Assembly: GCA_963793255.1 (NCBI GenBank)
Contig: CAWBZK010000003.1
Location: 214,878-278,877 of the forward strand
DNA: 64,000 nt
Direction of reading: 5' to 3'
Source of the DNA: an uncultured Acidobacteriota bacterium
GTDB taxonomy: Bacteria; Acidobacteriota; Vicinamibacteria; Vicinamibacterales; SCN-69-37
Below, piece after piece: positions 5,519-56,420 of the stretch. The notes beneath the pieces are model-generated. The model did no database searches. It saw only the letters and a program-made list of their open reading frames with translations, and was not told where the DNA came from. Within the stretch, counting starts at the first letter, position 1. Every line of letters starts with the position of its first letter. Both the position numbers and the translations under genes were made by a program.

Positions 5519-6860
5519 GTGACCAGCACCGTGACACAACACCGTCTCGATCTCAAACCTGTGCGCGCCGTCCGTGGCCTGGTGCCCGTCCCCGGCGACA
5601 AGTCTATTTCTCATCGCTACGTGATGCTCGGATCGATCGCGCAGGGGGTGACCTCGGTCACACATCTGTCGCCGGGCGCCGACGTCGCCGCCACCGTCGC
5701 CTGCATGCGCGCGCTTGGCGTCCGCATCGACGAGACCGGGCCGGGCGCTTTGACCATCCACGGACGCGGACGCGGGGGGCTCCGGGCCTCCCCCACGCCC
5801 ATCGATGCGGCGAATTCCGGCACGACGATGCGTCTGCTGGCCGGCATCCTGGCGGCCTGTCCGTTCTCGACGACGATGATCGGCGATGCATCCCTGTCGA
5901 AGCGGCCGATGCGCCGGATCATCGAACCGCTGAGCGTGATGGGCGGTTCGATCGAGGCGACCGACGGACACGCGCCGCTCATCATCCGCGGCGGGCGGCT
6001 TCGGCCCATCACGTGGGAGAGCAAGGTCGCCAGCGCGCAGGTGAAGAGCGCCATCATGCTGGCGGGCCTCGTGCCGCCGGGCGTCACGACCATCGTCGAA
6101 CCGCTCGCGACACGTGACCATAGCGAGCGCGCGTTCCCGGCGTTCGGCCTGAGCGTGCGGACATCCGCGCCGCCTGACGGCTCGCTCTCACCGCCGTCCG
6201 GTCCGGTGACCGTGTCGGTCGAGGGCGGACAGGAGGCACAGGCACCCGGACGAACGCTCGATGTGCCGGGTGACCCGTCGTCGGCGGCCGTCTGGGCGGC
6301 AGCCGCGGCCGGGTTGCCGGGTTCGTCGGTGGAGTTGACCGGCGTGTGTCTCAACCCTCACCGTCTCGGTTTCATTCGCGCATTGGAGCGGATGGGCGCC
6401 GCGGTGACCATCACGGTGGACGACGAGGTCGCCGGCGAAAAGGTCGGCAGGATCCGCGTTGGCCATGGGCAGCACCTGGACGCGACGATATTGCCCGACG
6501 AGGTCCCGAGCCTCATCGACGAACTGCCCGTGCTGGCCGCGCGCGCGGCCCTTGGGGGCCGGCTCGAGGTGTCAGGCGCGTCCGAGCTGCGGGTCAAGGA
6601 GAGCGACCGCATCACGGCGCTCGTGACCGGATTTCGCGCCATGGGCGTGACGGCCGACGAACGGCCGGACGGCTTCGTCATCGACGGATTCGAAACGGCC
6701 GACCGGCGGCACGGCCGACGCGGCGAGCGATCATCGGCTTGTGATGGCGTTCACGCTCGTCGCGCTCGGATCGACCGGCCCGTCGACGGTCACCGACGCC
6801 GGCGCCGTCGCGGTGTCGTACCCCGCGTTCGCCGAAGATCTGCGAAGGCTGACTGAGTGA
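5519..6860 (+). CDS. aroA: 3-phosphoshikimate 1-carboxyvinyltransferase (EPSP synthase); one frame break near 6688-6692
   Basis: PGDKSISHR, NSGTTMRLL, LRVKESDRI. After ...DGFVIDG the ORF-track frame turns into an Arg-rich tail. The next frame reads KRPTGGTADAASDHRLVMAFTLVALGSTGPSTVTDAGAVAVSYPAFAEDLRRLTE and stops at 6858-6860. Confidence 0.85.
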
Positions 6861-7395
6861 AGACCGACAAGATCTACCTCGTCGGCTTCATGGCGAGCGG
6901 CAAGACGACGATCGCGCGCGCGCTCGCGGCGCGGCTGCGGTTGGCGATCGGAGGACGTCGACGACCTGATCGAGAAGCGCGAGCGGCTCAGCGTGGCCGA
7001 GATCTTCGCACGGCACGGCGAGCCGCACTTCCGCGCGGCGGAGCGTGACATCCTCAAGCTCGTGCAGCCGATGCGCAACCTGGTCGTGGCGACTGGCGGC
7101 GGTACGTTCGCCGATCCAGACAACCGCACCGCGATTAATCTTGATGGCGTGTCGGTCTGGATCGACCTGCCGCTTGCCGATTTGATCCCGCGGATTCCGA
7201 TGGACGGACGCCGGCCGCTCGCGTCGGACCGCGCGCAGCTCGAACGTCTGTACGCGCTGCGCGTCGAAGCGTACCGGGCCGCCGTCGCTTCGCGTGGGCG
7301 CGTCTCACATGTCCACGTCCAAGATCGTGGACCACATCCTCGAGGCCATTCACCACCTGCCCTCGGTCGTTCACCAGCCGACGCCCCGCGTGTGA
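6857..7395 (+). CDS. aroK: shikimate kinase; two frame breaks (about 6940 and 7280)
   Basis: The GTG at 6857 overlaps the aroA stop. P-loop MKTDKIYLVGFMASGKTT. It continues in another frame as EDVDDLIEKRERLSVAEIFARHGEPHFRAAERDIL...VVATGGG, and in a third frame ends ...LRVGASHMSTSKIVDHILEAIHHLPS...PRV, stop 7393-7395. Confidence 0.8.
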
Positions 7396-7399
7396 GTCC

Positions 7400-8139
7400 G
7401 TGCGCTACCTGATCATCAGCGACATCCACGGCAATCTCCACGCGCTCGAGTCCGTTCTGCGCGACGCGGCCGCCATCGGGTACGACGCCGTCGTGTGCCT
7501 CGGGGACCTCGTCGGCTACGGCGCGGACCCGAGCGCCGTGATCCAGCGCGTCCGCGAGCTCGAGCCGGTCAAGATCGTGCGCGGCAACCACGACAAGGTC
7601 GCCGCCGGGCTCGAACCGGCCGTGCTCTTCAACGAAGTGGCCCGCCGTTCGATCGAGTGGACCCGGCAAACGGTGAGCGAGGACGAGCTGGCGTATCTGG
7701 CGGCCATGCCCGAAGGGCCCGGCCGTCGTCAACGAAACGTTCGAGATCTGCCACGGGTCCCCGTTCGACGAAGATCACTACGTCTTCGATCAGGACGACG
7801 CCGCACGATCCATCGAGGCATCGACGTCGCGCGTGTGCCTGTTCGGCCACACCCATTTGCCCGCGGTGTTCACCGCCGCCGACGATCCAGCGACGACCGG
7901 CAACGGACTCGCCGAGGACGAAATGCGGCTGCCGGTGAGCGGCCCGGCACTGATCAACGTCGGCTCCGTCGGCCAGCCGCGCGACGGCGACCCACGCGCC
8001 GCGTACGGCGTGCATGGATCTGGACAAGGGCACCATCCGACTTCGACGCGCGGTCTATGACGTGCAGGGAGCGCAGAGGAAGATCATGAAGGCGGGGTTG
8101 CCGCAATGGCTGGCCCTGCGCCTCGAAAAAGGCCAGTAG
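7400..8139 (+). CDS. metallophosphoesterase (YfcE/MJ0936-like); two frame breaks (about 7720 and 8012)
   Basis: MRYLIISDIHGN, LGDLVGYG, RGNHD; then in shifted frames VVNETFEICHGSPFDEDHY...CLFGHTHLP...INVGSVGQPRDGDPRAAYGV and MDLDKGTIRLRRAVYDVQGAQRKIMKAGLPQWLALRLEKGQ, stop 8137-8139. Confidence 0.75.
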
Positions 8140-8160
8140 CGCAGGACGCTGGCATTGACG

Positions 8161-8226
8161 GATTTGCGATCGGAGATTGATGGATTGCATTGAACAATTT
8201 GCGATTGCGGATTGCGGATTGAGAAC
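8161..8226. repeat. left arm of GATTGNG-heptamer inverted repeat flanking the four-helix-bundle gene
   Basis: gatttgcgatcggagattgatggattgcattgaacaatttgcgattgcggattgcggattgag. Its reverse complement resembles 8668-8750 (gatctgcgatcg...gattg...tgcattga...gattg). Confidence 0.65.
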
Positions 8227-8283
8227 TTCGGCAAGCCCGTGGAACCCGGACTCGTGGCACGAAGCCTGCTCCGTGGACGTCTC

Positions 8284-8643
8284 ATGACACCGCAGGAACT
8301 TCGAGACAGGACCATGGCGTTTCGGTGCGGAGGCCGTAAGGTTCTGTCGCGAGCTGCGGCAGAACCCGAACGCACGCGACCTCGCCAATCAGCTGAGTGC
8401 GTCGGCGACTTCCGTGACGGCGAACTACCGGGCTGCGTGCCCGCGCACGTTCGAAGCGCGAGTTCGTGTCAAAGCTCAGCATCGCGCTCGAAGAGGCCGA
8501 CGAGACAGTCGGATGGCTGGAGCTTCTCGTGCGGTCAGAGACGGCTACAGGGCGAAGCCGTTGATGGTTTGCTGAAAGAGGCGAAAGAACTCTGTCCTGA
8601 TTCTCGCCGCCTCGCGCCGGACGGCTGAACGCGAGCCTGAAGT
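8284..8643 (+). pseudogene. four-helix-bundle protein (23S rRNA intervening-sequence protein / Avd-like family), at least 4 frame breaks
   Basis: Stitching three frames gives MTPQELRDRTMAF..FCRELRQNPNARDLANQLSASATSVTANYRAAC / RARSKREFVSKLSIALEEADETVGWLELLVRSETATG / EAVDGLLKEAKELC / LILAASRRTAER. This is the characteristic pattern of the family: Q-L-x-R-A/S-xxS-V-xxN-xxE..., KEF and E-E-xxE-T-xxWL. Confidence 0.65.
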
Positions 8644-8667
8644 GAGGTCGCGGGCTAGGGGGCGTCT

Positions 8668-8750
8668 CTACAATCGCCGATTGGTCAATCGACTCAATGC
8701 ACCCAATCGTCAATCTCAAATCTCAAATCATCGATCGCAGATCCTCTCTA
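8668..8750. repeat. right arm of GATTGNG-heptamer inverted repeat flanking the four-helix-bundle gene
   Basis: ctacaatcgccgattggtcaatcgactcaatgcacccaatcgtcaatctcaaatctcaaatcatcgatcgcagatcc (CNCAATC words, the complement of GATTGNG). Confidence 0.65.
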
Positions 8751-8904
8751 ATGAGTACCGCGCGCTTGCCTCTCGTTTCTTCAGTTCAGCGGCGTACGCA
8801 TCCTTCGCCGCTCGCGACCCCAGAATCCAGCCGATGACGACGCCGATCATGAGCACTGCCGGAATGAACAGGAAGTGGCTCGACGGCATCTCGGCGAAGT
8901 TCAT
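8728..8904 (-). CDS. small single-TM protein at the distal end of the ccm operon
   Basis: MNFAEMPSSHFLFIPAVLMIGVVIGWILGSRAAKDAYAAELKKRE... Its ATG overlaps the CcmD-like stop (ATGA), and its last codons lie inside the repeat arm. Confidence 0.4.
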   Translation of the reverse strand: MNFAEMPSSHFLFIPAVLMIGVVIGWILGSRAAKDAYAAELKKREASARYSLERICDR

Positions 8905-16413: not shown

Positions 16414-16563
16414 GGGGGATTTGAAATTTGAGATTGATGATCCATTGGGGATCGGGGATCCGGGAATTGTTGATTGGGTCGAGCTCTCGATGCGCAATCA
16501 TCAATCATCAATCCCCAATCATCAATCATCAATGGATCATCAATTTCAAATCTCAAATCCCCC
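16414..16563. repeat. 150-nt imperfect hairpin of GATTG/GATGAT words ('empty' member of the GATTGNG family)
   Basis: The outer 34 nt gggggatttgaaatttgagattgatgatccattg pair with caatggatcatcaatttcaaatctcaaatccccc (2 non-Watson-Crick positions). Inner arms are attgttgattggg / ccccaatcatcaat. It fills the gap between the maf start and the DUF721 start. Confidence 0.8.
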
Positions 16564-18102: not shown

Positions 18103-18950
<848 letters not shown>

Positions 18951-19087
18951 TGATCTGCGATCGGTGATTGCGGATTGCATTGACGGATTGGGGATCGATG
19001 GGGATTGAGGATTGAAAATCCTCGATCCGCAATCCTCAGATGACCCGATCATCGATCATCGCAATCGCCGATCACAAATCCTCAATG
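18951..19087. repeat. 137-nt imperfect hairpin, GATTGNG family
   Basis: tgatctgcgatcggtgattgcggattgcattgacggattgggg...gaggattgaaaatcctc...cgcaatcgccgatcacaaatcctcaatg. Centre is gagga-ttgaaaa-tcctc. It starts one base after the hbd stop. Confidence 0.75.
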
Positions 19088-19898: not shown

Positions 19899-19974
19899 TG
19901 ACGACCTCCCGATCGGACACGCGACACGCGCGCCGAAAATTCGCGTCATTGTGACACAAGAAACTGTGGGCGAA

Positions 19975-20230
19975 AGGTTCGAACGGTTCGAAAGTTCGAA
20001 GGTTCGAAGGTTGGTACGGCTGTTCGAAGGTCGGTTCGAAGGTTCGAGGTTGGTTCGAGGTGCGAAGAATTTCGAAGTCGCGTCGGATCCGTCGAACCGA
20101 GTACCGTCCTTCGAACCTGCGAACCGTCCATCGAACCCTCGAACCGTCCTTCGAACCGTCGTCGAACCTGACCTGTCGAACCTTCGCACCTTCGAACCTC
20201 CGCACCTTCGAACCGTCGGTTCAGGTTCGG
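19975..20230. repeat. about 255-nt inverted array of GGTTCGAA(GG) words
   Basis: Left arm is ggttcgaacggttcgaaagttcgaaggttcgaaggttgg...ggttcgaaggttcgaggttggttcgagg. Right arm is ccttcgaacctgcgaaccgtccatcgaaccctcgaaccgtccttcgaacc...ccttcgaacctccgcaccttcgaacc. Confidence 0.8.
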
Positions 20231-21551: not shown

Positions 21552-21688
21552 GCATTGCGGATCTGTGATTTGTGATTGAGGATGGCATTGGCGATTGAGT
21601 GATCGCGGATTGCGGATTGAAAATCGTCAATCCACAATTCTCCGATGGCCAAATGCAATCCTCAATCGCCGATCACAGATCCGCAATG
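21552..21688. repeat. 137-nt imperfect hairpin, GATTGNG family
   Basis: gcattgcggatctgtgatttgtgattgaggat pairs with atcctcaatcgccgatcacagatccgcaatg. Centre is gcggattgaaaatcgtcaatcc. It starts at the base after the recA stop, and its last 3 nt are the ATG of the next gene. Confidence 0.8.
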
Positions 21689-25023: not shown

Positions 25024-25099
25024 GCCGAGGTAGCTCAGTTGGTAGAGCACGTGACTGAAAATCACGGTGTCGGCAGTTCGATTCTGCCCCTCGGCACCA
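25024..25099 (+). tRNA. tRNA-Phe (GAA) with encoded CCA
   Basis: Folded by hand: acceptor GCCGAGG/CCTCGGC, D arm GCTC/GAGC, anticodon stem CGTGA/TCACG with loop CTGAAAA, variable loop GTGTC, T arm GGCAG-TTCGATT-CTGCC, discriminator A, CCA. Confidence 0.95.
25053..25099 (+). repeat. attL-like: 3' 47 nt of tRNA-Phe, repeated at 31011-31058
   Basis: gactgaaaatcacggtgtcggcagttcgattctgcccctcggcacca is repeated at 31011-31058 with a single extra T. Confidence 0.8.
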
Positions 25100-25157: not shown

Positions 25158-25344
25158 CAGTGGTAAGCAAACGACGCGGCGTGCCCTAGATTGCTGGAGC
25201 TTCGGCCGGAGCCGGCCCGCGCCGGCCACCAAAAGCAAAGGCCCGCGCGATGGCGGGCCTCTGCACTTCTCGCGACGTTCGTGCTGCTACGTGCGTTTGC
25301 GGAACCGTCGCACGGCTGCGCCCGCGAGGCCGACGCCGAGCAGC
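25158..25344. repeat. island-internal direct repeat, copy 1 (sorting-signal tail + terminator module)
   Basis: About 90 percent identical, with small indels, to 26747-26923. On the minus strand it encodes ...LLGVGLAGAAVRRFRKRT-stop followed by a hairpin and T-run. Confidence 0.75.
25231..25262 (-). terminator. intrinsic terminator inside repeat copy 1
   Basis: Minus strand: gaggcccgcc-atcg-cgcgggcct followed by ttgcttttgg. Confidence 0.5.
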
Positions 25345-25649: not shown

Positions 25650-26800
25650 TGCTGTTCATGGCGTGCTCATACGCTCACGGCTTACGGCATCGTCGAATAC
25701 TTCACGAGCGTTCGGCGCAGCAGCGAACGCCACGGAGGCGTAGGAGTTTGAAATAGCCGACCAAGTTCTGTTGATACAGCGACACCAGGACCGTGCTGGC
25801 CGTCGCGGACTGGTCGGCGACGGCCTATCTACATCGCCGTCGGGAACACGTCGACTTCCAGGCCGCCATCGGGAGAACATTCGCGCTCGGGTCCACGATG
25901 ACGATGTTGTTCATCGCGGCTTCACTCGCGACGACCTCAAGGCCGAAGCCGGGCACCTGGCCGCGAATCGCCGCCGCATAGGTGCCATTGGCAATAGGAC
26001 GGGCGCTTCCGCGCCAGGCCGCGCAGCGAAGAAGGCGGCGATTAAGGCTTTGACCGACGCGACCACATCGGCCGTGCCGACGAGTGGCGCCCCGGCCATC
26101 GAGGTAATTGAGCCGGGGCGTTGGCCGATGATGAGCGTCGAGGCCGGGTCGAGAAACGACTTGTCGACGAACGCATTGAGGCCGGAGGTCATCGCCCGTT
26201 GCAACGCGGGCGCGGTGCCGGTATTCGCCAGCATCGCCAGCTCTTCACTCAGGACGATGATGCCGAGAATTTTCGACGGCGGCAAGGTGAGGCCGTCACT
26301 AAACGCCAACTTGGAAACCGGCGTCGGCGTTGTTTCACTCACCCACACGAAATTCGCCTCGGCGGTCTGATACGGCACTTTCGCGTTGGAACGGAATTTG
26401 TTGCAGCGGGAGGCGACCGAGCAAATTTTTCGAATGCGCGACTTCGAGGAACCCGCCCGCCCATGACTCAATCCCGACGAGCGGCTTCGCCCATGCGGCG
26501 TCGGTGCGACGTGCCCGGCGCAGTCACCGTTTTGGTGACCAAGTCGAGGGTGCCCGACTCTAACCATGTTTTTAGCTGGCCTCCCCCGTAGGTGCGCCCA
26601 AAACGGCTCACGAACAGTTCCGCCGCGTCCTGCTGACTGCCGTAAGTGTGGGCGAGACAACTTAAAGATTTTGTGAAATCCAACGCATTCTGCGTTCGGA
26701 TTTCGTCGCGGGTCGATTCGCGCAGTCGCAGCGGCGGGCTGATGTCCAGTGGTAAGCAAGCGACGCGGCGTGCTCTAGGTTGCTGGAAGTGTTCGCCCCG
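25650..26800 (-). pseudogene. HK97-family phage major capsid protein, at least 4 frame breaks
   Basis: Fragments in different frames: AELFVSRFGRTYGGGQLKTWLESGTLDLVTKTVTAPGTS; ANFVWVSETTPTPVSKLAFSDGLTLPPSKILGIIVLSEELAMLANTGTAPALQRAMTSGLNAFVDKSFLDP...GSITSMAGAPLVGT; NGTYAAAIRGQVPGFGLEVVASEAAMNNIVIVDPSANVL; VSLYQQNLVG. Confidence 0.55.
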
Positions 26801-26923
26801 GAGCCGGCCCCCAAAAGCAAAGGCCCGCGCGATGGCGGGCCTCTGCACGTCTCGCGACGTTCGTGCTACGTGCGCTTCCGGAACCGTCGCACGGCCGCGC
26901 CTGCGAGACCGACGCCGAGCAAC
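26747..26923. repeat. island-internal direct repeat, copy 2
   Basis: See 25158-25344. Here it forms the 3' end of the IPT-domain gene. Confidence 0.75.
26811..26843 (-). terminator. intrinsic terminator inside repeat copy 2
   Basis: Same ggcccgc/gcgggcc hairpin followed by ttgcttttgg on the minus strand. Confidence 0.5.
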
Positions 26924-31010: not shown

Positions 31011-31058
31011 AGACTGAAAATCACGGTGTCGGCAGTTCGATTCTGCCCCTCGGCACCA
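31011..31058 (+). repeat. attR-like partial tRNA-Phe copy
   Basis: gactgaaaattcacggtgtcggcagttcgattctgcccctcggcacca; identical to tRNA positions 25053-25099 except for one inserted T. Confidence 0.8.
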
Positions 31059-31181
31059 ATCAAGAACTTCAAGATCAACAACTTCGACGGACCGCAGACG
31101 GACGAGCGCGGTCTGTGACGCGAGATAATGGCCCTTATTTCTACAGCTCGCTAATGGTTCTTATCGTTGATAGGAGTCAGT

Positions 31182-36191: not shown

Positions 36192-37577
36192 ATGCGTCTC
36201 ATTTCTCAACGAGCGTTGGTGTACACGGCAGTTGGCGTCGTCGCAATGGGCTTGTGGGCGACCGGGCTCGTCGCGCGGCAGCGCGCCGCGGCGGCGATGG
36301 CGACGGCGGCCACGGCCTATGTGAACAGCCTGACGCCGGAACAGAAACAGAAGGGCGTCTTCCCGATGCCCGACAAGGCGTGTCTCGACGCGGAGACCTC
36401 GACCTGCGAGTGGACAAAATGGGCGTTCATCCCCGCGAGCATGTCGCCGAGAAACGGCGTGCCCCTCAAAGACATGACCGAGCAGCAGCGCCAGCGCGCG
36501 CACGACCTGATGAAAGCGAGCATGAGCCAGGCCGGGTACACCACCGCGACGACGATCATGAGTCTCGAGCTGGTGATGCGCGTCACGGAGGGCGCCGACG
36601 AGACCGGTCGCTCGGGCGGCCAGCCGGTCGGACAGTTCGTCATGACGACGCCCGCGCCAACGCTCGGCGCGGCGTGCGGTCTTGGTGACATGAGCGCCGT
36701 CGTCCCCGCGCCGGGCGTCCCGACGGGTCGCCGCGGTGGCGGCGCGCGTGCTGGCGGTCAGCCGGGTGGCGCAGCAGGCGGCGGTCAGGCTGCGGGTGGC
36801 GCGGCGCAGCCTGGCGGCGGTCAGGCTGCAGCTGGTGCTGGTCAGCCTGGCGGCGGTGGCGGTCGTGCAGGTGGCGGCGGTCGTGCCGGCGGCGGCGCGC
36901 CGATCATCCGCGATCCCGGGCTCTACTACTTCAGCGTGTTCGGCGAGCCCTCCACGAAGACGGCCTGGGGCTGGCGCGTGGAAGGCCATCACGTCTCGTT
37001 CCGTTTCGCCGTGGACGGCGCGAAGATGACCGTGGCGACGACGCCGAACTTCCTCGGCGCGAATCCGGCCCGTGTGCCCGATGGCGCGCCGAATCCGGGC
37101 CTGCGCGCGCTTGCGCTGCAGGAAGACTCCGCGCGAGCGCTCATGCAGTCGATGACGCCGGCGCAGTGCTCCGTCGCGCTCGTTTCCGGCACGCCGATTG
37201 GCGATGTCGGGAGCGGGACTCGGCTCAAGGTCGATCCCGCCAACCCCCTCGGCATACCCGCGGCGCAGATGACGCCGGCGCAGCGCGACCTGCTCCTGAA
37301 GCTGCTCGAGAGCTACACGAACGTGATGGCCGCCGACATCGCGGCCGATCGGGTGAACAAGATCAAGGCCGCCGGCATCGAGAAGATCTCGTTCGCGTGG
37401 TCCGGTTCCAGCGAGCCGCGCCAGCCCTACTTCTACCAGGTGCAGGGGCCGACGTTCGTGCTCGAGCACAACAACACGCAGAACAACGCCAACCACATCC
37501 ACTCGGTGTGGCGTGACTACAACGGGGACTTCGGCCGCGACCTCCTCGCCGAGCACCTCGCGGCGGTACCGCATTAA
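36192..37577 (+). CDS. DUF3500 domain protein with Gly-rich low-complexity insert
   Basis: GWRVEGHHVSFRF, FLGANP, VLEHNNTQNNANHIHSVWRDYNGDFGRDLL. Insert RRGGGARAGGQPGGAAGGGQAAGGAAQPGGGQAAAGAGQPGGGGGRAGGGGRAGGG. Confidence 0.75.
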   Translation: MRLISQRALVYTAVGVVAMGLWATGLVARQRAAAAMATAATAYVNSLTPEQKQKGVFPMPDKACLDAETSTCEWTKWAFIPASMSPRNGVPLKDMTEQQRQRAHDLMKASMSQAGYTTATTIMSLELVMRVTEGADETGRSGGQPVGQFVMTTPAPTLGAACGLGDMSAVVPAPGVPTGRRGGGARAGGQPGGAAGGGQAAGGAAQPGGGQAAAGAGQPGGGGGRAGGGGRAGGGAPIIRDPGLYYFSVFGEPSTKTAWGWRVEGHHVSFRFAVDGAKMTVATTPNFLGANPARVPDGAPNPGLRALALQEDSARALMQSMTPAQCSVALVSGTPIGDVGSGTRLKVDPANPLGIPAAQMTPAQRDLLLKLLESYTNVMAADIAADRVNKIKAAGIEKISFAWSGSSEPRQPYFYQVQGPTFVLEHNNTQNNANHIHSVWRDYNGDFGRDLLAEHLAAVPH

Positions 37578-37585
37578 ACAAGTTC

Positions 37586-37650
37586 GAAGTAAGAAGTGAG
37601 AAGTCAGAATTCATACTTCTGACTTCTTACTTTCTGACTTCTCACTTACT
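37586..37650. terminator. bidirectional hairpin of GAAGTNA heptamers between convergent genes
   Basis: gaagtaa gaagtga gaagtca gaattc-at-acttctgacttcttactttctgacttctcacttact. The right arm overlaps the last 3 codons of the kinase gene. Confidence 0.6.
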
Positions 37651-46201: not shown

Positions 46202-47323
46202 ATGAAAAGACGTCCCCTTAGTTTGGTGGCGGCGGCGCTCGCGCTGTCTGGCACCGTGTTCGCCCAGGGCCAGGCCCCTGGTGCTGGTGCTGGCGCCCAG
46301 GCTCCGGTGACCGCCCCAGGCGGCGTCGTCCTGACGCCCGCCGCGGCGAGACTGCTGCCCAAGGCCATCGACGCGTCCGATATCAAGTACGAAGTCGTGA
46401 AGGACTTCATGAAGATGCCGCCCAACGTGTACATGGGCGAAGGCATCGGTGTCGCCAGCAACTCCAAGGGGCACATCTTCGTCAACACCTGCGCCCAGCA
46501 GACCCGCAATTTCGAGTTCGACCAGAACGGCAACTTCGTGCGGGAGATCGGGAAGGACTCCTACGGCAACGTGTTCTGTCACGGCATTCGCGTTGATGCC
46601 CAGGACAACATCTGGGTGATCGACGAGGGTGCCAACTCGATCATCAAGTACAACCCCGCGGGTCGCGCGGTGATGATCCTGGGTCGCCGGCTCGGGTTCC
46701 CCTACACCGGGATGGAGCCCCCCGTGAAGGAGATGAGTCCGGCGCCGCCGTATATTTTCAATCGCCCCACGGACGTCGCCTGGGACGCGGCCGGCAACAT
46801 CTTCGTCGCCGACGGCTACGTCAATTCACGCATCGTCAAGTACGACAAGGACGGCAAGTTCATCAAGCAGGTCGGCACGCGCGGATCCCAGGGCCCGCAG
46901 TTCAATCTGATCCACGCGATTGCCGTGGATGCCCAGGGCAATGTGTACGGTGGCAGCCGCAGCGACATGCGCATCGTGGTGTTCGACAACGATCTGAACT
47001 ACAAGACCACGTTCGACCACGTCGGCGCGCCGTGGTCGCTGTGCATCACCCCCGGCCCAGGGAAGCAGTATCTCTACACCTCCAATTCCAACCCTGACTC
47101 GCAGGACACCGAGCTGCACAAGGCCAGCGGCCAGATTTTCAAGATGGAGCTGGACGGCAAGGTTCTCGGCAAATTCGGCGTCCCCGGCAAAGAGCAGGGA
47201 CAGTTCAGCACGGTGCACGGCATCGATTGCCGCGTCGAGAATCAGCTGCTGATCACCGAGATCGTCGAATGGCGACTGCAGAAATTCATCCTGCACCCCA
47301 CTGCCGCCCAGGGGGGCAAGTAA
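46202..47323 (+). CDS. secreted NHL-repeat six-bladed propeller protein (peptidylglycine-lyase-like), paralog 1
   Basis: Signal peptide; repeated blocks PTDVAWDAAGNIFVADGYVNSRIVKYDKDGKFIKQVGTRGSQGPQFNLIHAIAVDAQGNVY. Confidence 0.7.
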   Translation: MKRRPLSLVAAALALSGTVFAQGQAPGAGAGAQAPVTAPGGVVLTPAAARLLPKAIDASDIKYEVVKDFMKMPPNVYMGEGIGVASNSKGHIFVNTCAQQTRNFEFDQNGNFVREIGKDSYGNVFCHGIRVDAQDNIWVIDEGANSIIKYNPAGRAVMILGRRLGFPYTGMEPPVKEMSPAPPYIFNRPTDVAWDAAGNIFVADGYVNSRIVKYDKDGKFIKQVGTRGSQGPQFNLIHAIAVDAQGNVYGGSRSDMRIVVFDNDLNYKTTFDHVGAPWSLCITPGPGKQYLYTSNSNPDSQDTELHKASGQIFKMELDGKVLGKFGVPGKEQGQFSTVHGIDCRVENQLLITEIVEWRLQKFILHPTAAQGGK

Positions 47324-48414
47324 TGAAATCCTCACGCATCGCATTCACACTGGTATTCGCCGGCGCGCTCGCGGCCGGATCGCTTCTGGGCGGCCCGGTC
47401 GTTGCTGAGCGGGCTCAGCCGGCCCAGCAGAAAGAAATCCCGTTCGAAACGGCCGGTGATTTTCTGAAGCTGCCGGACGACATCCATCTCGGTGAAGTGG
47501 CCGGCGCGGCCACCACTCAGAAGGGCAACCTGTTCGTGTACTACCAGGGCGGCGGGCCGAACGCCACGATTGGCGCATCGCGCGTGTACATCAACGGCGG
47601 CGCGCGCCTGCTGGAGTTCGATCGCACCGGAAAGTTCCTCCGCGAGATCGGCAACAGCGAAAACGATCGTCCGTACGCGTTCCTGTTCGCGCAGGGCGTC
47701 CGGGTCGATCCGCAGGACAACATCTGGATCGTGGACCGCGCCTCCAGAATGGTCGTCAAGTTCGACCAGACCGGCAAAGTCCTGCTGACGCTCGGCCGCA
47801 GGCTCGAGGCGGTTGGTGAGCTCGGCAGCAGCGGCGTGTTCGGCCGCGCGTCCGGCCCTCCGGGATCCGGTGTCCCCGGCGACAACTTCAACCAGCCCCT
47901 TGACGTGGCCTTTGACGCGGCCGGGAACATCTTCATCCCCGACGGCTACGGCAACGCCCGCGTCGCCAAGTTCGACAAGAACGGGAAGTTCGTGAAGTCC
48001 TGGGGCGCGACCGGTGCCGAGCAGGGCCAGTTCAACACGCCGCACTCCGTCGCCGTCGATGCCGCCGGCAACGTCTACGTCGCGGATATGGGCAACAAGC
48101 GCATCCAGGTGTTCGACAACAACGGCACGTTCAAGACTCAGTTCGCGAACGTGGGCGCGCCGCGCGCCCTCTGCATCTCGCCGGGCCCGCAGCAGTTCCT
48201 CTACAGCTCGAACTCGAACACGACCGAGGATCCGTTCCTCGGCGGCGAGATTTACAAGATGCAGCTCGACGGGACCGTGGTCGGCCGTTTCGGCAAGGCG
48301 GGCAAGCAGATGAAAGAGTTCGGCATGGTCAACCAGATCGACTGCCGCGAGCCCAACACGTTGTACGTCGCCGAGATGATGAACTGGCGCGTGCAGAAGC
48401 TCACGCTGAAGTAG
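47323..48414 (+). CDS. secreted NHL-repeat propeller protein, paralog 2
   Basis: ATG overlaps the upstream TAA (TAATG). PLDVAFDAAGNIFIPDGYGNARVAKFDKNGKFVKSWGATGAEQGQFNTPHSVAVDAAGNVYVADMGNKRIQVFD. Confidence 0.7.
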   Translation: MKSSRIAFTLVFAGALAAGSLLGGPVVAERAQPAQQKEIPFETAGDFLKLPDDIHLGEVAGAATTQKGNLFVYYQGGGPNATIGASRVYINGGARLLEFDRTGKFLREIGNSENDRPYAFLFAQGVRVDPQDNIWIVDRASRMVVKFDQTGKVLLTLGRRLEAVGELGSSGVFGRASGPPGSGVPGDNFNQPLDVAFDAAGNIFIPDGYGNARVAKFDKNGKFVKSWGATGAEQGQFNTPHSVAVDAAGNVYVADMGNKRIQVFDNNGTFKTQFANVGAPRALCISPGPQQFLYSSNSNTTEDPFLGGEIYKMQLDGTVVGRFGKAGKQMKEFGMVNQIDCREPNTLYVAEMMNWRVQKLTLK

Positions 48415-56180: not shown

Positions 56181-56194
56181 CTCACGGCACCTGC

Positions 56195-56358
56195 GGTTCA
56201 GGGTTTCGGGTTCCAGGTTTCGGGTTCTGGTTCAGAGTTCCGAGGTTCAGGGTTCTGTCATTGAGCCATGAACCTGGCAACTCGGAACCAGAACCTGAAA
56301 CCAGGAACTCTGAGGAACCAGAACCCGAAACCCGGAACCCGAAACCAGGAACCCGAAG
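56195..56358. repeat. about 160-nt hairpin of GGTTNNG heptamers
   Basis: Left arm ggttcag ggtttcg ggttcca ggtttcg ggttctg gttcaga gttccga ggttcag ggttctg; loop tcattgagccat; right arm gaacc...ggaactctgaggaaccagaacccgaaacccggaacccgaaaccaggaaccc. Confidence 0.8.
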
Positions 56359-56420
56359 TCCAGGTGAGCGTCTGACCCGCTGCTCGCCTGCTGATAGCAT
56401 TCGGCGGCAGGAGCCCAACC

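Follow-up and report, generated by a model that had tools for sequence, protein, structure and literature searches.

The 64,000-nt stretch analyzed here (hereafter, the window), taken from contig CAWBZK010000003.1 of an uncultured Acidobacteriota bacterium of the Vicinamibacterales (assembly GCA_963793255.1), carries a 601-nt cassette (8153-8753) in which a gene of the S23p/Avd four-helix-bundle family lies between two inverted arrays of short repeated words. On one side the cassette borders a metallophosphoesterase gene on the forward strand, ending at 8139, and on the other a convergent small membrane open reading frame (ORF) on the reverse strand, whose last codons and stop are supplied by the outer end of the right array. 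A preliminary description of the segment had recognized the convergent neighbors and placed hairpin arms around the gene at 8161-8750; the arms are indeed present, as 8153-8223 and 8670-8753. The 5' (left) arm (71 nt, forward strand) is G/T-rich, consists of degenerate 7-nt words (GATTGNG, GATTTGC, GATCGGA) and reads CATTGACGGATTTGCGATCGG...GATTGCGGATTGCGGATTGAG. It is followed on the same strand by a 60-nt leader (8224-8283) reaching to the start codon, by the gene itself (8284-8645) and by the 3' (right) arm (84 nt), which is C/A-rich, consists of the complementary words CAATC, CAAATC and CGATC, and reads ACAATCGCC...ATCGATCGCAGATCCTCTCTAATG. As the preliminary description had it, the blocks GAT(C/T)TGCGATCG and TGCATTGA occur in both arms.

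The two arms pair with an energy of -61.5 kcal/mol, as compared with -30.5 +/- 4.5 kcal/mol for shuffled arms (z -6.9), and none of 500 random window segments paired with the left arm as strongly as the right arm does. The minimum free energy fold of 8145-8760 (616 nt) likewise joins left arm to right arm. Exact GATTGNG, the word by which the arms were initially characterized, is not enriched window-wide (42 matches vs 39 expected). The exact count was dropped as a statistic in favor of clustering, of pairing energy and of inverted k-mers shared between flanks. Since the words are degenerate, their significance lies in clustering and symmetry, not in word count. No sigma-70-like promoter was detected in the leader. 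A terminator scan flagged no window hairpin and no T-run follows the hairpins; a reading of the stems as intrinsic terminators was rejected for want of that T-run. No Rfam family matched the hairpins, the sole Rfam match in the window being a tRNA, and no rRNA was identified by Rfam in the 64 kb, where the neighbors of the cassette are protein genes.

The gene comprises 357 nt plus five single-base insertions, which spread the pieces of its protein over three reading frames; corrected, it has 118 codons. Its assignment to the four-helix-bundle family, proposed in the preliminary description, is borne out by profile scores, structure prediction and fold comparison. The hand-stitched 118-aa ORF matches PF05635 with 60.6 bits (curated cut-off 33.8) and TIGR02436 with 81.7 bits (cut-off 24), and one unstitched frame alone still matches the family (E = 2.7e-5). 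Database relatives of the stitched protein number 2,093, the best being 92% identical, and the corrected product is 95% identical to an orthologue, P0001, annotated as PF05635. For the 92%-identical orthologue AlphaFold (AF2) predicts four helices (predicted local distance difference test, pLDDT, 96), and Foldseek aligns this model with 2RLD (BT_0352) at template modeling (TM) scores of 0.87-0.92, with 2GSC (XCC0516) at 0.76-0.80, and with the Avd protein of diversity-generating retroelements (DGRs; 4DWL and 8UB7 chains) at ~0.7. Both 2RLD and 2GSC were deposited with five chains each, from which we infer that the cassette protein would be pentameric. The SxxxN part of the conserved family motif GxxRxxxSxxxNxxE (Zhang 2013, PMC3936711) is present (SATSVTAN), its closing E being A (NYRA) across the subfamily; invariance is seen instead at EEADE and W77. 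Membership in a defense system or phage family was considered and rejected, as searches of PADLOC and PHROGs gave no match for the protein. A single-sequence search for PF05635 relatives returned 7,524 clusters at 50% identity. It is a very large family, for which we know of no recorded function outside DGRs.

The five insertions fall at about positions 8323, 8440, 8548, 8593 and 8632 (four C, one T). The preliminary description regarded the gene as decayed, a view that comparison with its relatives does not support. In a short-read JGI contig ~95% identical to the window (L164) this cassette is also present, and its gene of 118 codons is unbroken. Against this contig the window shows seven indels, all of them +1 insertions (six of C) with no deletions, and two of the seven are a single C in the neighboring metallophosphoesterase gene (7709, 8013). 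Removal of the five bases opens the frame from end to end, with a ratio of nonsynonymous to synonymous substitution rates (dN/dS) of 0.16 against L164 (0.10 for the neighboring gene). Orthologues are intact in five short-read assemblies, with pairwise dN/dS of 0.07-0.17. The housekeeping genes aroA and aroK, in window positions 6700-8140, also look frameshifted, and the window therefore resembles a consensus prone to error, probably one built on long reads. A similar picture emerges from a metagenome-assembled genome (MAG; L165) when it is set against L414, a short-read contig 94% identical to it: the ~575 nt of cassette contain 17 insertion events, of which 15 are single-base, and the 737-nt gene next to it contains none. 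L165 is probably a long-read assembly, because it shares the label MFD with other MAGs holding broken copies; in a third MFD-labeled MAG (L215) the four-helix-bundle gene is broken likewise. The five frameshifts in the window are thus most likely assembly or consensus errors, and the organism itself probably has an unbroken gene. Judging from the intact orthologues and the purifying selection acting on them, the protein is functional in this clade. Possible causes of the pile-up of insertions in the cassette include effects of the hairpin on pore signal, DNA modification and mis-polishing of repeats.

The closest homologues (70-96% identity) all lie at the junction between aroA-aroK-metallophosphoesterase and ccm genes, and the syntenic site is identical in seven related contigs; the cassette has therefore been inherited vertically. 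Its arms change quickly, differing in length by 28 nt (four words) between 95%-identical strains.

The window contains further hairpins of the same kind that lack an ORF. The preliminary description had listed three such loci as carrying the same arms as the ORF-bearing element. All three are real hairpins, near-perfect and with fold z-scores of -6.4 to -12 on either strand, and two of them, at 18945-19087 and 21553-21688, share the ~38-nt termini of the ORF-bearing element by fold and arm alignment; the third, at 16414-16563, is assigned by fold and arm comparison to a sister arm type (GATTTGAAATTTGAGATTGATGATCCATTG), which brackets a four-helix-bundle gene in another genome (L215). The 18945 and 21553 hairpins are 84% identical, apical loop included, and so are copies of one another. 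Alignment of 20 arms, a check suggested at the outset, yielded a ~38-nt terminal consensus, CATTG-M-GGATCTGCGATCGG-Y-GATTG-M-GGATTGCATTG, common to ORF-bearing and ORF-less copies. The outer ~38 nt of the 8153-8223 arm agree with it, and it occurs in ORF-bearing copies from the window, L411, L413, L414 and L165 and in ORF-less hairpins both in the window (18945, 21553) and in related Acidobacteriota MAGs (L015, L021, L024, L044, L075). A scan with a 19-nt arm pattern gave 83 matches, about half of them chance matches within genes (~35 expected by our own estimate), and was used only to recover relatives (L015, L021, L024, L044, L062, L075, L067, L071). No target-site duplication is visible in the 20-arm alignment, and the flanks beyond CATTG...CAATG are unrelated. 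The hairpin termini CATTGA/CAATG abut or supply the stop and start codons of neighboring genes: the terminal AATTGA of the 18945 hairpin contains the stop codon of the upstream gene (18948-18950), and the terminal CAATG of the 21553 hairpin contains the probable ATG of the downstream gene (21686-21688). Three more word hairpins are written in other dialects, at 19966-20217 (GGTTCGAA, period 8), 37575-37650 (AGAAGTN) and 56190-56360 (GGTTCNG). The AGAAGTN word type also brackets four-helix-bundle genes in two other loci (L151, L155). The 19966-20217 hairpin lies within a long predicted ORF. In all seven window hairpins the 5' arm is G-rich and the 3' arm C-rich.

The analysis of the family at large included 80 loci from GTDB species genomes, picked by protein similarity alone, of which 78 were scored with 150-nt flanks. 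Word arrays upstream of the gene, with their reverse complement downstream, are present in nearly all 80 loci, spanning Acidobacteriota, Planctomycetota, Verrucomicrobiota, Bacteroidota and Desulfobacterota as well as Gemmatimonadota, Ignavibacteria, SAR324 and cyanobacteria. The two flanks of a gene have on average 9.4 inverted 7-mers in common, as compared with 2.1 for random positions of the same loci, 3.6 for the direct orientation and 2.6 for mismatched loci, and at least five such 7-mers are shared at 79% of the 78 loci vs 12.5% of controls. The word period in clean arrays is 7 (n=51), 8 (n=25) or 9 (n=4) and never 5, 6, 10 or 11, so that 76 of 80 clean arrays consist of tandem 7-nt or 8-nt units, with ~3-5 words per arm. 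The 5' arm is G-rich at 86% of loci, and the upstream neighbor has the orientation of the cassette gene in 57 cases vs 5. Word sequences vary by lineage, and a single nuo operon has two cassettes, 2.3 kb apart, whose words differ; within a cassette the left and right arms always match. The site of insertion is conserved in a given clade, as at nuoD|nuoE in Terriglobia and at the junction between efflux adaptor and CusA-like pump genes in Planctomycetes. Besides the cassettes, the four-helix-bundle loci contain 28 extra word hairpins. A detector run blind on control loci, first collected with recA as anchor for orthologous regions (a purpose for which recA is too conserved), found one extra cassette (L259). 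A stem with an ORF in its loop is thus the rule for the PF05635 family across phyla: the stitched ORF of the window matches this family, and most of its homologues are flanked by word arms. Neither of the two outcomes named in the preliminary description as refuting it was obtained.

The layout extends to finished plasmids of cultured organisms. Of six such plasmids, four (Nostoc punctiforme, Gloeocapsa, Chlorohelix and Treponema) have the gene between inverted word arrays, Planktothrix has complex arrays and Bernardetia is an unclear case. On the Nostoc punctiforme plasmid four copies of GTCGGAG pair with CTCCGAC. Inverted word arrays are also present in all three viral-labeled contigs from IMG/VR. 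Rehm et al. (2015; PMC4692102) list, in a supplementary table, a four-fold GGGAATC array over the start of XCC0516, an overlap that the authors leave without comment. XCC0516 is the protein of PDB 2GSC.

Several observations concern the setting of individual cassettes. Very long arrays occur in Treponema saccharophilum pTS1 (L330) and Planktothrix agardhii p1 (L329), with ~250 nt of GAAAGNN words or with GATTTAC and CCCCAAT, and as the gene has at least two complementary partners around it, alternative pairings with or without the ORF are possible. In three Planctomycetes loci (L097:3334-3949, L106:3346-4136, L136:3328-3917) an extra word hairpin lies just downstream of the cassette, ~500 nt into the frame of the CusA-like pump, and either splits that gene or is translated in frame. 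Cassettes, several of those on the plasmids among them, also sit co-directionally inside defense and restriction-modification clusters (L326, L328, L329, L421). One lies in a DISARM cluster between drmD and an MmeI-like gene; others have as neighbors the genes for a DUF1156 protein and for a Swt1-type HEPN protein, or those for a helicase and for a methylase; one viral-labeled cassette is situated between BREX pglX and pglZ, judging from the flanking peptides. This placement agrees with four-helix-bundle genes, designated 23S_rRNA_IVP, reported inside cas loci (PMC3936711).

Comparison of the orthologous intergenic site in 80 other Vicinamibacterales genomes found it empty, filled by an ORF-less hairpin or filled by a gene of a second family, GxxExxY. 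Presence and absence at this site, the comparison proposed in the preliminary description, thus takes the form of empty, hairpin-filled and cassette-filled states in different genera, with no near-isogenic pair among them. The ORF-less hairpins at the site are written in dialects including GGGTTCC, CACGAAG, GGAGATT, GGGAATT and AGAGCGG. In two genomes the orthologue of window 8140-8760 holds a GxxExxY gene (TIGR04256, 141.9 bits) flanked by inverted words (L214:3613-4341, L172:3606-4340). GxxExxY (TIGR04256) is a family that Pfam puts, as PDDEXK_3, in the PD-(D/E)XK superfamily. Its plasmid genes in Gemmatirosa, Bernardetia and Sphingomonas (L416-L418) are wedged into operons, that of Sphingomonas between fabD and fabG, and are flanked by word arrays: on both sides, and inverted, in Gemmatirosa and Bernardetia, only upstream in Sphingomonas. 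Since GxxExxY genes share the architecture, the arms are not specific to the four-helix-bundle protein, and therefore no property unique to that protein can explain them.

Other repeated features of the window are of a different nature. The 3' half of a tRNA gene at 25024-25096 recurs at 31012-31072, 5,959 nt downstream, with 90% identity, a pair that looks as att sites would at the two ends of an integrated ~6-kb island; within this 25-31 kb interval a 185-nt stretch is duplicated (25158-25342 and 26747-26921, 91-94% identity). Two tandem paralogous segments at 46516-48188, with a spacing of 1,130 nt and 70-72% identity, look like an ordinary gene duplication.

The preliminary description saw in the layout a copy of that of rRNA intervening sequences (IVSs), and the two do match: in Coxiella, the IVS is an RNase III substrate whose 28-bp stem has S23p in its loop (PMC4990558). 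Like the ORF-bearing 23S rRNA IVSs of Coxiella, Leptospira and others, the cassette encodes a protein of this family, in sense orientation and in the loop of a stem formed by terminal inverted repeats (~28 bp or more in IVSs). Unlike them, the window cassette lies outside rRNA, between protein genes, and its relatives also lie inside operons; its stems are made of tandem 7-8-nt words, and purifying selection acts on its protein, in contrast to the reported decay of Coxiella S23p. RNase III cutting is a feature of IVS stems, and the cassette is known here from its sequence.

The combination of an ORF copy with ORF-less hairpins resembles a REPIN-RAYT system (repetitive extragenic palindromic, REP, doublets forming hairpins and the REP-associated tyrosine transposase; Bertels and Rainey, PMC3116915; bioRxiv 10.1101/2021.07.10.451892) more closely than it does a transposon with MITEs (miniature inverted-repeat transposable elements). 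As in REPIN-RAYT systems, a vertically inherited gene is flanked by repeats that are also dispersed as ORF-less hairpins of ~100-150 nt, and different repeat families occur within one genome. The RAYT is a single-copy gene, and the likeness of the cassette in this respect rests on synteny in seven contigs and on shared termini, not on genome counts. The cassette differs in encoding a four-helix bundle (PF05635) instead of a Y1/HUH transposase, and in having arms that are word arrays, as opposed to the REP palindromes with their conserved GTAG. With MITE/autonomous pairs it shares short dispersed copies that have the terminal inverted repeats of a longer ORF-bearing copy, but here the ORF copy is fixed at one syntenic locus and there is no transposase domain and no target-site duplication.

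Tandem heptamers themselves have precedents. Mazel et al. reportedly described the heptameric STRR (short tandemly repeated repetitive) sequences of cyanobacteria in 1990. Rehm et al. (2015; PMC4692102), who noted that no detailed literature on bacterial heptamer repeats existed, described GGGAATC and GGGGAYT repeats in Xanthomonas and Nostoc; those of Xanthomonas often occur as convergent pairs able to form stem-loops (70 pairs), and the repeats, which are G-rich and transcribed, were explained as formers of G-quadruplexes. The cassette arms are alike in consisting of head-to-tail 7-nt units in intergenic DNA, in convergent pairs, but the repeats in those studies are not tied to PF05635 genes. 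We rejected a G-quadruplex reading for the words found here, as most of them (GATTGCG, GATTTTC, AGAAGTN) have no G-runs. Avd, which is a pentamer binding RNA stem-loops (bioRxiv 10.1101/2023.10.23.563531), resembles the cassette protein in its four-helix-bundle fold and in the pentamers found among solved relatives, the binding of RNA stem-loops being a property of Avd; the sequence similarity between the two is remote, and no DGR parts were found around the window locus. In the searchable literature, whose coverage leaves out subscription journals, we found no paper linking PF05635 or GxxExxY to flanking word arrays. The nearest papers deal with IVS biology, with heptamer repeats in Xanthomonas and Nostoc and with 23S_rRNA_IVP genes in cas loci.

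We favor, with middling confidence, an interpretation of the 8153-8753 unit as one copy of a widespread cassette, in which an S23p/Avd-like gene of ~120 aa lies between inverted arrays of 7-8-nt words, and which would correspond, outside ribosomal genes, to the ORF-bearing IVS of 23S rRNA. Presumably without a promoter of its own, the cassette would be transcribed by read-through from a co-oriented upstream gene. Its G-rich 5' arm and C-rich 3' arm would then form a double-stranded RNA stem of two or more helical turns, which would insulate the insert from its neighbors and, by analogy with IVSs, would be a likely substrate of RNase III. The pentameric protein may bind word stems, both that of its cassette and those of the ORF-less copies; we propose this because Avd, the only studied relative, binds RNA stem-loops. 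As in REPIN-RAYT systems, the ORF-less copies would depend on a single-copy gene, here with no known transposase. As a speculation, the G-first polarity may keep C-rich, Rho-loading RNA from being exposed ahead of its pairing partner. Several points weigh against this interpretation. About a fifth of the 78 homologues have no detectable inverted 7-mers, and G/C polarity is reversed in a few loci. Several word dialects coexist within one genome, and the unrelated GxxExxY family shares both the architecture and the orthologous hotspot. A further point is the excess of insertions inside the cassette in probable long-read assemblies. Near-isogenic gain or loss of a hairpin was not found, as the matches listed in metagenome and recA scans were distant relatives only; in the metagenome scan with the 3-hydroxyacyl-CoA dehydrogenase beside hairpin 18945, the best matches were only ~66% identical, and a look-up of that exact protein sequence gave no record. 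Finally, transcription, cleavage and binding of the stem by the protein are here inferred.

The main rival interpretation holds that the hairpins exist beforehand and that small ORFs home into their loops, so that the arms are a target and not part of a mobile unit. It is serious because a second ORF family exists, and two unrelated families in the same architecture and at an orthologous hotspot are what it would lead one to expect, as are the many word dialects per genome, the position of IVSs in place of the tetraloops of rRNA helices (PMC4990558) and the preponderance of ORF-less over ORF-bearing hairpins, six to one in the window and with the 28 extra hairpins of the four-helix-bundle loci. 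Yet orthologous sites without the ORF are either bare or hold hairpins of different words, none having the same arms minus the ORF, and no ORF-sized insertion polymorphism was seen within an otherwise identical hairpin. The ORF copy has moreover been vertical over long divergence (synonymous divergence, dS, up to about 3) with its arms staying in the same dialect, and we regard homing as possible but doubtful. A benefit to the host, with the hairpins acting as REP-like mRNA stabilizers, terminators or insulators and the protein as a regulator encoded inside one of them, would suit hairpins that occupy whole intergenic spacers up to the stop and start codons of their neighbors, a protein that is vertically inherited and under purifying selection, and an orthologous site that repeatedly holds some hairpin. 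It fits poorly with the lack of T-tracts and of terminator calls, with the occurrence of hairpins between divergent, tandem and convergent genes alike, with the emptiness of the site in many relatives and with the fast turnover of the words, and we deem it decidedly unlikely.

The arrays could also be a neutral by-product of slippage and quasi-palindrome template switching, which would homogenize arrays around any inverted repeat and leave the link to the gene without function. The four-word change in arm length between 95%-identical strains and the free variation of words across lineages, with arms that stay matched, point in this direction, but such a process leaves unaccounted for the enrichment in one small-protein family across phyla (79% vs 12.5%), the strict 7-8-nt period with its G-first polarity, and the ~38 nt of non-repetitive termini and loop common to dispersed copies, and we regard it as very improbable. 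The relation suggested in the preliminary description, that of an autonomous element and its MITEs, would make the ORF copy a dying transposon; this is highly improbable in our view. The five frameshifts of the window sequence and the terminal inverted repeats shared by short dispersed copies speak for it. The breaks, however, are all +1 and missing from the 95%-identical short-read contig, the corrected gene and its five intact orthologues have the low dN/dS values given above, and the cassette holds a fixed syntenic position down to 70% protein identity, with no target-site duplication and with neither a transposase domain nor a transposase fold found in its protein by profile and fold searches. 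A role as DGR accessory protein, for which the likeness in fold to Avd (4DWL and 8UB7 chains, TM ~0.7) and the grouping of Avd with the four-helix-bundle family in CDD (PMC10053308) could be cited, is effectively refuted for the window locus: the search for a DGR suggested in the preliminary description found no template/variable repeat pair in the 64-kb window and no Pfam match to a reverse transcriptase in the orthologous 12-kb neighborhood, PADLOC and PHROGs gave no match, and the nearest structures are the stand-alone 2RLD and 2GSC.

For the PF05635 family, tractable organisms and solved structures are available (XCC0516, BT_0352, Nostoc punctiforme). In practical terms, cassettes occur inside operons, defense operons included, and in long-read MAGs they look like pseudogenes through what are most likely cassette-specific insertion errors. 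The origin and mobility of ORF-bearing rRNA IVSs have been a standing question since about 1990, and a single rule, that of a gene between inverted 7-8-nt arrays with ORF-less copies sharing its termini, ties together three puzzles: the PF05635 family, the ORFs of IVSs and heptamer repeats. A bolder proposal, which we consider unlikely, is that PF05635 pentamers, and in parallel GxxExxY proteins, would read word arrays in a sequence-specific way, about one protomer to a word, with ~4-5 words per arm and a dialect of its own for each paralogue, and would propagate vertically inherited populations of hairpins. If true, this would account jointly for the excess of heptamer repeats (STRR, GGGAATC) and for the ORFs in rRNA IVSs, and would also explain the stray small genes in nuo, fab, cas, BREX and DISARM operons.

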